A stretch of DNA of 64,000 nucleotides from Cladosporium halotolerans (Eukaryota): assembly GCF_011745625.1 (NCBI RefSeq), contig NW_027191453.1:124001-188000 (forward strand), written 5' to 3'. Positions within the stretch are counted from its first letter, which is position 1, and every line of letters starts with the position of its first letter. Below are positions 29,457 to 31,101 of the stretch, in pieces. The position numbers were made by a program, and so were the translations under genes. Below the pieces are notes generated by a model, which was given only the letters and a program-made list of their open reading frames with translations, was not told the DNA's origin and did not search any database.

Positions 29457-29894
29457 GATTGCTATTGTGTTGGTGATTAATTGACGTGAATCAATTGATC
29501 AGAGACAGTTGGAGTCGGGGTCAGGGAACGGCTTCAAAAGTTGCCCGCTTCAATGCCTCGCGCCCAGTCATGGCGGGCAAAAATGAGCGTCATCCCACCC
29601 GACAGCCCACCTTGCCCGACGTCGGCGTTACCAGGTAGCAAGCGAGCCTCCCCGCTACCTGAACTGAAGGCTGCCTCCGCGGACTCTTGCTGCCTGAGAT
29701 GCCTCAGCATTAGCGAATGCACGAGCCTGCCGTGCCTGCCTTCGCCAAGCCCCAGCTGGCATTAACTTCTACAAATCCTTGGACGACATCACGTCTCTTT
29801 CTTTTCATTCCTTCACGCGGCAACCAGAATCAGAAATCCCTCTGCACCTGCACACGAAGGATATCCCTTTTGTATCCTTCTGCGCATCGCAGCC

Positions 29895-31101
29895 ATGTCA
29901 GCCATGGAGATGTTCTGGGCCGCGCCGCCGGTTGCTCGGTATGCAAGCTCGAATTCGCCTTGATGGCCAAGGACCTCTCTGATTTACTGATCTACAGAAC
30001 CATCACTGCTATCACTGTCGCACTGTCCGTGCCAGTGCACATGCAATTGATCCCTGGGTACTACGTTGCCTTTTTGACTTACAGGGTCTTCACGTGGCGA
30101 ATCATACCCGAAGTTTGGCGTCTACTCACGCCGTTCTTCATCACGTCCCCGAACCTCGGCTTGCTCATGGATCCTTACTTTCTCTGGATGTACAGCAGCC
30201 AGCTCGAGAGGGAGTCTAGCCGGTTCTCTCAGCCGGGCGAGTTCTTCACCTACCTCATCTTCGTATGCTCGGTGATCTTGGTGAGTCGGGATATCTCTGC
30301 TTTTCTTCAACACGCGAAGCTTCCTCAGCACAATTTCCTTCTTCGTTCCTTACATTCAACCTCCCATTATCTGCCCGGCCAGCTGCTCTTAGCTGTGACC
30401 GGTTCCTGGTTGGGAGGGAAATTACCCCTGCACTGTGCGGGCGCTCGTCATTCGCAATCAATCCAAGAGCGTTCGTGGAGTGTGGGCATGGTGGGATTCC
30501 GGTTTTGAGAAATCTGTTAGCCGAGACATGTGGCGAAACGGAGGTTGTTGGCCCCTACATCTCTTCTTCGAAATTTATACTTGTCATTTGTTCGCTCGTC
30601 CCAGAGTCGGCACTGACAATCCTGTAGATGACCTGTGGCATTGGCATGGACGGCGTATTCTTCCTCAGTGCTTTGACGTTGGCGCTGGCGTATACGTATG
30701 CCCAGGACAACCCCAATAGGCAGCTCACCTACTTCATCGTCACGTTCTCTGCCAAGTATCTCCCATTTGCGATGCTTGCTCTGACACTAGTGATGGCGTC
30801 GCCCAGGGCTGCCCTGGAGCAATCGACTGGCCTAGTCGCTGCGCATGCTTACGAGTTCCTGACCAAGATCTGGCCAGAGCATGGCGGAGGTCGCAAGGTC
30901 ATCAACACGCCCGCTTTTGTGGCGAGATGGTTCGCGACAGCTCCCGGAGTCGCTGCCCAACGCTCTTACGGCACGGCGTATACTGGCACCTCCGGGGCTC
31001 AGAACGTGGGACAGCAAGGCCAGGCTGGGGGCAATGGCGGATGGGCCAGTGGCTCATCTTGGAGTTCTCGCGGTCAAGGTAGACGTCTTGGAGGCAACTA
31101 A
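29895..31101 (+). CDS. Derlin (Der1/Dfm1-like ERAD membrane protein) with C-terminal SHP-like box; 3 exons
   Basis: MEMFWAAPPVAR|TITA...PEVWRLLTPFF. Introns 29939-29997 and 30281-30627. TGLVAAHAYEFLTKIWP. C-terminal RGQGRRLG resembles the Cdc48/p97-binding SHP motif. Confidence 0.9.
30358..30562 (+). ncRNA. Intronic box H/ACA snoRNA, predicted guide for LSU rRNA pseudouridine at the yeast U966 position (snR43-like)
   Basis: 5' hairpin: CTCCCA(30361)/TGGGAG(30411) lower stem, pocket TTATCTGC / TTCCTGGT, CCGG and AGCT upper stems. H box AAATTA at 30419-30424, 15 nt after the guide start. Further hairpins follow, then ACA at 30557-30559. The pocket pairs with rRNA UCAGGA-UA-GCAG. Confidence 0.78.

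Follow-up and report, generated by a model that had tools for sequence, protein, structure and literature searches.

In Saccharomyces cerevisiae, the box H/ACA small nucleolar RNA (snoRNA) snR43 is listed, in the accessible parts of two reviews, as the guide for pseudouridine (Ψ) 966 of the 25S ribosomal RNA (rRNA) and for Ψ73 of the 5.8S rRNA (PMC5699541, PMC8307265). In vertebrates, ACA9 is a double guide, wherein the 5' hairpin serves the snR43-equivalent site and the 3' hairpin the snR33-equivalent site, according to the available portion of PMC2653536. A 201-nucleotide (nt) RNA of Neurospora crassa, Nc ACA9 (EU780988), is known from a cDNA library and a northern blot, and the accessible section of that report marks it as 'Intron' and 'Orphan' (PMC2780460). 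Canzler et al. state, in the available extract of their paper, that the Schizosaccharomyces pombe orphan AJ632018 matches snR43 and that the snR33 family was not found in Pezizomycotina (PMC5824354). Here, a stretch of 64,000 nt from Cladosporium halotolerans (contig NW_027191453.1, positions 124,001 to 188,000; henceforth the window) was analysed, and it was concluded with high confidence that its positions 30359-30562 on the + strand form an intron-borne box H/ACA snoRNA, a Pezizomycotina counterpart of snR43 (by eye, also of Nc ACA9), which most likely guides pseudouridylation of the U equivalent to yeast position 966 in the large subunit (LSU) rRNA. Its host is intron 2 of a derlin gene.

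The resemblance to snR43 extends over the whole RNA. In a scan of a 221-nt stretch, the Rfam model of the family (RF01256) aligned with window 30359-30562 from end to end (model positions 1-207 of 207; 27.2 bits, E 4.2e-4), and the derlin locus L041 likewise gave a full-length match (30.5 bits, E 6.8e-5). The original prediction, made from the letters of the window alone, had called the element snR43-like, and this complete alignment bears it out. It had also read the order of the parts as hairpin, H box, two further hairpins and ACA. Such an intronic box H/ACA snoRNA is sustained by covariation, the H box, the invariant ACA and the spacing of the pockets, and the lower stem, pocket strands, upper stem, H box and ACA all lie where they had been placed. 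From 5' to 3', the RNA consists of hairpin 1, the H box, an internal hairpin, one U, hairpin 2, a U and the ACA box. The long internal hairpin is also present in the structure line of the Rfam snR43 consensus, aligned to window 30425-30491; the three-hairpin layout is therefore a trait of the family and not a novelty.

The snoRNA region was aligned with MAFFT across 52 distinct sequences. The H box fits ANANNA in 47 of them, and the remaining five end in G. The pockets of the two terminal hairpins are open and keep the canonical spacing to their boxes. In hairpin 1, the 3' guide starts to pair at 30404, 15 nt from the base that precedes the H box; in hairpin 2, the top of the 3' guide (30543) is 14 nt from the base preceding ACA; both distances hold in 52/52 sequences. 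The 15-nt spacing from target to H box that had been proposed for the window is, hence, exact throughout the alignment. The upper stem of hairpin 1 pairs CCGG at 30375-78 with 30399-402, along with CAGC/GCTG. At the 3' end, conservation stops 1-3 nt past ACA, the Nc ACA9 cDNA ends at ACA+3 in the accessible part of its report, and the RNA contig of a relative ends at ACA+2.

For the comparison of hosts, 80 derlin loci were taken from metagenome contigs, chosen via an alignment of exon 3 homologues. With blastn, window 30340-30600 matched 73 of these, always just 5' of exon 3, at identities of 68-88% (plus one 17-nt fragment at 100%). A covariance model of the snoRNA built in this analysis, R1, was run on the window and on the same loci. 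It matched 76/80 of them, again just 5' of exon 3, and gave a single match in the 64-kb window (30356-30564), whose 191.7 bits are mid-range for the family. Two of the four loci missed by R1 (L076 and L078) come without upstream DNA, and in the other two (L054 and L065) exon 2 and exon 3 are contiguous, so the intron is absent. The latter are contigs from metagenome collections (L054:144-893 and L065:212-961) with neither the derlin intron nor the snoRNA, and they look like spliced, cDNA-derived copies or cases of intron loss; the exon 3 identity of L065 to the window is the same as that of the intron-bearing L062.

The conserved block of the MAFFT alignment opens at the stem of hairpin 1 and closes at CCTACAT. 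In the nine closest loci, the identity to the window is 0.83 over the snoRNA versus 0.32 and 0.42 over its flanks, and in the 42 other loci, it is 0.63 versus 0.24 and 0.25, the flanks being near random. By the nearest named derlin, some loci are Teratosphaeriaceae-like, others Pleosporales-like, and others lie farther off, with Candelina as the nearest. All the loci that keep the intron also keep derlin as the host, and the protein of exon 3 is only 46-78% identical to that of the window across the 80 loci. A coupling of rRNA modification to ER stress through this host, as put forward in the original prediction, is speculation. An alignment of the orthologous introns had been named in the original prediction as a check; once run, it showed the pocket, H and ACA elements to be kept, with strong covariation. 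The conservation of the intron element at 76 of the 80 orthologous loci, together with this covariation, places it far beyond chance.

Base pairs were counted on a model-fitted alignment of 58 distinct rows and 48 modelled pairs. Standard pairs occupy 93.5% of the cells versus 78.4% in shuffles, the observed value being reached by 0/500 shuffles, and changes on both sides are seen in 38 of the 48 pairs. As a control, the partners were slid by 1-3 columns, upon which pairing fell to 39-50%. RNAalifold, run on the plain MAFFT alignment, found compensatory changes in 31/47 pairs. The minimum free energy fold of the + strand recovers the long middle hairpin as well as hairpin 1 and its open pocket (-78.8 kcal/mol, z -1.92, with 6/200 shuffles equally good), and the - strand is unremarkable (z -0.40). 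A hairpin-hinge-hairpin-tail fold with an extra internal hairpin is supported by these comparisons.

One pairing of the original prediction had to be given up. Its 3' hairpin, in which TTCCGGTTTTG pairs with CGAAACGGAG, was rejected because it is not conserved in the alignment, and the comparative data give a different stem. In the supported fold of hairpin 2, 30493-30501 pairs with 30549-55, the pocket is formed by 30503-12 and 30543-48, and the upper stem spans 30513-42; the TTTTGAGAAA stretch is an open pocket strand and not a stem. On the MAFFT alignment, RNAalifold missed the lower stem of hairpin 1 and paired the invariant UUCCU with AGGRA instead (columns 53-57 with 65-69 of alignment A2; window 30403-07 with 30415-19). 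This pairing shows zero covariation and was rejected, and the lower stem is preferred since both the single-sequence fold and the covariation of its inner pairs show it. The alternative is probably spurious; it could compete with the open pocket 1.

The guide targets were sought in LSU rDNA loci retrieved via a short conserved motif, which are eukaryotic contigs in prokaryote assemblies and not the rDNA of C. halotolerans; in the loci scanned, the small subunit rRNA is represented by its 3' part only. At least 53 assemblies labelled bacteria or archaea (L081-L133) contain such short eukaryotic LSU rDNA contigs, evidently as contamination, and both yeast-like and filamentous-fungus-like types occur among the matches listed. 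Yeast numbering was set by taking the target U of pocket 1 as 966 in the yeast-like LSU locus L106. With this anchor, 22/22 of the modification sites tabulated in the available part of PMC5699541 land on the expected base.

Pocket 1 fits the LSU segment tccctcagga-TA-gcag with 6+4 or 6+5 base pairs (bp) in 10/10 of the fungal-like LSU loci scanned. UCAGGA pairs with UCCUGG (one G-U) and GCAG(A) with (U)CUGC, and U-A is left unpaired. The CTGC of this pocket is kept in 52/52 distinct full-length snoRNA sequences, and its pairing with the LSU amounts to at least 10 bp in 50 of these and 8 bp in two. In the nine closest relatives, two pairs are lost on the 3' strand of the pocket and two are gained on the 5' strand (UUACUGC); the gained pairs fit GCAGUG-type rRNA (4+6 bp). 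The target named by the original prediction is, thus, retained: in GGA-U-AGCAG, the U is flanked on either side by pairing with hairpin 1, and this complementarity and the 22 numbering sites equate that U with yeast 25S-966. The same pocket pairs with 5.8S gugaa-UU-gcaga by 3+5 bp in all three loci that include the 5.8S (of 10 scanned), with totals of 7-10 bp across the 52 snoRNA sequences. A second target at the 5.8S U73-equivalent is possible but weakly supported by these figures.

RNA evidence was drawn from the contigs of four RNA libraries (four studies), aligned to window 30150-30750. Each of the four runs has a contig that lacks exactly 347 nt and joins 30280 to 30628. Intron 2 of the derlin gene is real and spliced, and the length of 347 nt first given to it (30281-30627) is correct. 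Over the intron core, the only contig is record 2 of run X15, which is 292 nt long, covers 30357-30561 and ends 2 bases past ACA. The end at 30561 hints, if at all, only weakly at a mature RNA. Runs X17 and X18 have zero contig cover over the intron and X19 covers its 3' end only (30554 onward), which is uninformative either way. The X19 contig, of 103 nt (window 30554-30656), begins shortly 5' of the ACA box, spans the remainder of the intron and enters exon 3; it stands for unspliced RNA, or else for DNA present in the library.

Several points weigh against the conclusion that this is a working snR43-type guide. The snR43 scores of 27.2 and 30.5 bits are lower than the gathering score of 60 and are significant only for a short stretch. 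An Rfam scan of the window at gathering thresholds gave 0 matches, and a permissive scan of 501 nt was without snR43, which came up only in scans of 221-231 nt. The Rfam scan proposed with the original prediction, thus, agreed with the family in its end-to-end alignment but not in its score. The pair counts come from an alignment fitted to the model, a bias in favour of the structure. Among the contigs of the four RNA runs, the mature ~204-nt RNA is without read-level support in C. halotolerans, and the X15 contig stems from a relative (15 differences), bears an unlike 5' extension of 87 nt and comes from a library that may hold DNA. With LSU of the Pezizomycotina type, pocket 1 makes only 10 bp and leaves one guide base unpaired atop its 3' strand; a base unpaired at this place is also found in the Rfam yeast consensus. 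The Ψ at the LSU 966-equivalent is itself a prediction from complementarity, if a most likely one.

These points can be read in other ways. The conserved intron core may be taken for a structured element that acts in cis on the splicing or expression of the derlin pre-mRNA, and not for a trans-acting snoRNA. Its host gene and intron are the same throughout, and the mature RNA is not shown for C. halotolerans. However, conservation breaks off right behind an invariant ACA, an H box sits in the hinge, and the open pockets are exactly 15 and 14 nt from the boxes. Further, the two-sided complementarity to rRNA is kept in 50/52 sequences, Rfam snR43 matches end to end, and the homologue in N. crassa was cloned as a discrete 201-nt RNA, as the accessible section of that report has it. 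A purely cis-acting role is, on this evidence, highly improbable. Even less credit, to the point of being negligible, is due to the notion that this copy has become a decaying relic and that the functional ones are elsewhere. The search did cover the 64-kb window and not the whole genome, but the copy is the sole match there, its 191.7 bits are mid-range for the family, and both boxes, all the stems and both pockets are intact.

A genuine H/ACA RNA of the snR43 family might also have a hairpin 1 that does not guide the 966-equivalent, being an orphan or serving another substrate, e.g., 5.8S U73. Nc ACA9 was entered as 'Orphan' by the N. crassa authors, who had found no target for it, the pairing with Pezizomycotina-type LSU is only 6+4 bp, and pocket 1 also offers 3+5 bp to the 5.8S site in each of the three loci including it. 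Against this stand guide cores that are invariant across lineages in which exon 3 is only 46-78% identical to that of the window, and a spacing of 15 nt that is exact. In the nine closest relatives, pairs lost on one side of the pocket are made up for on the other, in a way that suits rRNA of the GCAGUG type, and yeast snR43 is named in the review tables as guide for the 966 site. We consider such a change of substrate very unlikely, and a guide for the 966-equivalent remains the preferred reading of hairpin 1.

The host is a three-exon DER1/derlin gene on the + strand, as judged from its frame and splice sites (Table 1). PF04511 is present in the derlin homologues, the best named of which belong to Teratosphaeriaceae-like Dothideomycetes at ~64% identity. 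The distance from the end of the snoRNA to the 3' splice site is 65 nt in the window and has a median of 71 (range 57-145) in 70 loci. The reading frame of exon 2 (window 29717-30508, +) is open for 228 nt into intron 2, over hairpin 1 and the internal hairpin. Because this frame stays open to 30508, a caller of open reading frames can extend the derlin protein across the snoRNA; the original remark that gene predictors may misread the RNA as coding sequence is plausible. Many of the database 'proteins' for the derlin gene are exon-3-only fragments of ~150 amino acids.

Table 1. Parts of the predicted snoRNA and of its derlin host gene (window positions).
Feature	Position	Strand	Basis or remark
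Predicted mature box H/ACA snoRNA, snR43 / Nc ACA9 family	30359-30562, ~204 nt	+	Rfam snR43 full-length match, R1, conservation limits
Hairpin 1 lower stem, 5' strand CCTCCCA	30360-30366	+	Pairs with 30411-17; inner pairs covary (helix 1)
Hairpin 1 pocket, 5' guide strand TTATCTGC	30367-30374	+	..UCUGC complementary to LSU GCAG 3' of target
Hairpin 1 upper stem-loop	30375-30402	+	Helices 2-3: compensatory changes in 7/8 pairs
Hairpin 1 pocket, 3' guide strand TTCCTGGT	30403-30410	+	U30403 unpaired; UCCUGG complementary to LSU UCAGGA
Hairpin 1 lower stem, 3' strand TGGGAGG	30411-30417	+	Pairs with 30360-66
H box AAAUUA (ANANNA)	30419-30424	+	Sole ANANNA in intron 2
Internal (middle) hairpin between H box and hairpin 2	30425-30491	+	Helices 4-7: compensatory changes in 15/18 pairs
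Middle-hairpin loop motif UCAUUCGCA, nearly invariant	30448-30456	+	Complementary to LSU GCGAAUGA(U), yeast 999-1007
Hairpin 2 lower stem, 5' strand (GGG..CCG)	30493-30501	+	Helix 8: compensatory changes in 5/7 pairs
Hairpin 2 pocket, 5' guide strand UUUUGAGAAA	30503-30512	+	Complementary to LSU UUCUCAA(A)
Hairpin 2 upper stem-loop	30513-30542	+	Helices 9-10: compensatory changes in 9/9 pairs
Hairpin 2 pocket, 3' guide strand GGUUGU	30543-30548	+	GGU nearly invariant
Hairpin 2 lower stem, 3' strand	30549-30555	+	Helix 8
ACA box	30557-30559	+	ACA in 52/52 aligned sequences
Derlin exon 1	29895-29938	+	
Derlin intron 1	29939-29997	+	
Derlin (DER1 family) exon 2	29998-30280	+	Frame, splice sites; RNA contigs join 30280 to 30628
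Derlin intron 2, snoRNA host	30281-30627, 347 nt, GT..AG	+	Skipped exactly by RNA contigs
Derlin exon 3 with stop codon	30628-31101	+	Frame, splice sites, homologues

The 3' hairpin had been left without an assignable target in the original prediction, which no longer holds, as hairpin 2 has a conserved pocket and a candidate LSU target at the position of yeast U1039. The 5' strand of pocket 2, ..TTGAGAAA, is kept in 46 of the 58 distinct sequences and the GGT of its 3' strand in 57. On LSU ..ACC-UA-UUCUCAA(A), the pocket forms 3-5 + 7-8 bp at the 14-nt spacing; the pairing reaches at least 10 bp in 51/58 sequences and is less in 7/58. The U left unpaired has its yeast equivalent at position 1039, which is not listed as a modified site in yeast; Ψ1042 (snR33) follows three bases 3' of it. 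Three details speak against this pairing: it requires one unpaired A atop the 5' strand, the base at the 1039 position is C, not U, in seven of 53 LSU loci, among the matches listed, and with small subunit rRNA covered in its 3' part only, hairpin 2 may have a target there instead. It is nevertheless most likely, as a prediction only, that pocket 2 engages LSU ACC-UA-UUCUCAA with the U1039 position as its canonical target.

The fourth base of the 3' strand of pocket 2 varies between G and U, fitting rRNA with C or A/G at 1035, the match by taxon being unverified. Further, Nc ACA9 (in the accessible part of its report), L039, L070 and L080 have other 5' strands in pocket 2, which are complementary to the adjacent rRNA segment; the altered strands target CAUCCA in a variant LSU type and ACCUAU in the common type. 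Engagement of this LSU segment by pocket 2 is plausible because of the G/U variation, the shifted strands, the double guiding by vertebrate ACA9 and the failure of Canzler et al. to find snR33 in Pezizomycotina.

The 5' guide strand of hairpin 2 is changed in L039:1220-1430, L070:616-825, L080:1221-1430 and L062:116-324. In the first three, it contains ..UAGGUA (UUAUAGGUA in L070 and L080, GUUUAGGUA in L039), complementary to LSU ACCUA beside the usual site, and in L062, pocket 2 looks degenerate on both strands. The sequences suggest lineage-specific retargeting or loss of pocket 2 in these four loci. On the side of the rRNA, seven loci (L118, L124, L125, L126, L129, L130 and L133) have the LSU variant ..CUUCAUCCAUUCUCAAAC in place of ..CUUAACCUAUUCUCAAAC. 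This variant loses the U at yeast 1039 and creates a U at 1037, and the pocket 2 strand of Nc ACA9, as given in the available record, is complementary to it.

Other sites for hairpin 2 were tried and rejected. The strands required for 5.8S U73 are absent, and so are those required for Ψ1042, where an extension from the upper stem into GAAA does not pair (by eye). The covariation-supported stems put the unpaired dinucleotide at 1039-1040 and not at 1042-1043, and guiding of Ψ1042 by hairpin 2 in the manner of SNORA9 was not found with them. Further sites, such as ...cttt-TC-ttcttaac with 2+7 bp and three wobbles, are too weak.

The loop of the internal hairpin, TCATTCGC, occurs in 50/52 sequences. 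In five LSU loci alike, its most stable predicted duplex is with GCGAAUGA (yeast 999-1006), situated between the sites of the two pockets, at -13.3 kcal/mol; the runner-up site has -12.6 kcal/mol, 0.7 behind. As both partners are invariant, covariation cannot test this pairing, which we put forward as a hypothesis. Extra pairing with rRNA is documented for C/D snoRNAs, as far as the accessible parts of PMC3116282 and PMC8522698 go, and one literature search found no report of accessory rRNA pairing by H/ACA modification guides. A more speculative, rather unlikely proposal is that the RNA docks on a stretch of ~85 nt in LSU domain II by three collinear contacts, in which pocket 1 would hold the 966-equivalent U, the loop UCAUUCGC would lie on GCGAAUGA (yeast 999-1006), midway between the pocket sites, and pocket 2 would hold ACC-UA-UUCUCAA (1036-1047). 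The stretch is the helix 37-38 region of the yeast review table. If true, the RNA would act as a double guide like SNORA9, to which an accessory pairing element is added, it might supply the function of the snR33 family, and Nc ACA9 of N. crassa would be de-orphanised.

In the proposed order of events, the derlin pre-mRNA would be spliced, and the snoRNA would then be trimmed from the intron while in complex with Cbf5/Nop10/Nhp2/Gar1. In the helix 37 region, pocket 1 would direct the conversion of the 966-equivalent U to Ψ, and it may also act on the 5.8S U73-equivalent, the second known target of yeast snR43. Pocket 2 would, in turn, most likely engage its predicted LSU segment at yeast 1039.

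The RNA family and the three-hairpin layout are known, and nothing in this locus alters the understanding of H/ACA guides. What is new is the candidate target of hairpin 2, the link to Nc ACA9, the conserved derlin host and a possible accessory contact. With this analysis, C. halotolerans, and many relatives in which the gene escapes the Rfam thresholds, gain a non-coding gene that their annotation lacked, and the open frame of exon 2 is a warning for the annotation of intron 2. A cloned 'orphan' H/ACA RNA of N. crassa is tied, by its likeness, to snR43 and to a concrete rRNA target. The snoRNA has been retained in the same derlin intron across lineages that share only ~50% identity in derlin exon 3. 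A second target beside Ψ1042 and an accessory rRNA contact are offered as predictions. A literature search on snoRNAs in fungal derlin introns returned nothing relevant, and among the titles on snR43, none concerned Pezizomycotina hosts.

Compared with the known systems, the derlin-intron RNA shares with S. cerevisiae snR43 the succession of hairpin 1, H box, long internal hairpin, hairpin 2 and tail, as well as the predicted LSU target, 25S-Ψ966. The pocket 1 core of RF01256 is also alike, with ..UCUGCC / GUUC.. and one unpaired base atop the 3' strand. However, the consensus of RF01256 has AUA where the derlin-intron RNA has ACA, and pocket 2 and the internal-hairpin loop of the yeast consensus are unrelated to those found here. 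Yeast snR43 is independently transcribed, whereas the derlin-intron RNA is intronic. The S. pombe snR100 (RF01449), which we take, as a guess, to be the same RNA as AJ632018, matches hairpin 1 weakly and locally, sharing its guide letters, at a non-significant 10 bits (E 3.6-8.2).

Nc ACA9 looks homologous to the derlin-intron snoRNA by eye, the likeness covering the pocket 1 strands, an H box AGAUUA, the loop CAUCAUUCGCAAAAU, the CCAUGGUGGGAAUGC junction (CCAUGGUGGGA), the CCCUACAUCU end, the location in an intron and the length of 201 nt, all as they stand in the accessible portion of its report. It differs there in being annotated as an orphan and in the 5' strand of its pocket 2, UUUGGAUG, which is complementary to CAUCCA of the variant LSU and moves the predicted target ~6 nt upstream. 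The vertebrate SNORA9 / ACA9 (chicken GGgACA31) did not come up in the permissive Rfam scans of the 501-nt and 221-231-nt stretches. According to the available part of PMC2653536, it is likewise intronic and has its sites in the same rRNA neighbourhood. SNORA9 is, however, only ~130 nt long and without an internal third hairpin, and its 3' hairpin serves the Ψ1042 equivalent, whereas the canonical geometry of hairpin 2 in the derlin-intron RNA points to 1039.

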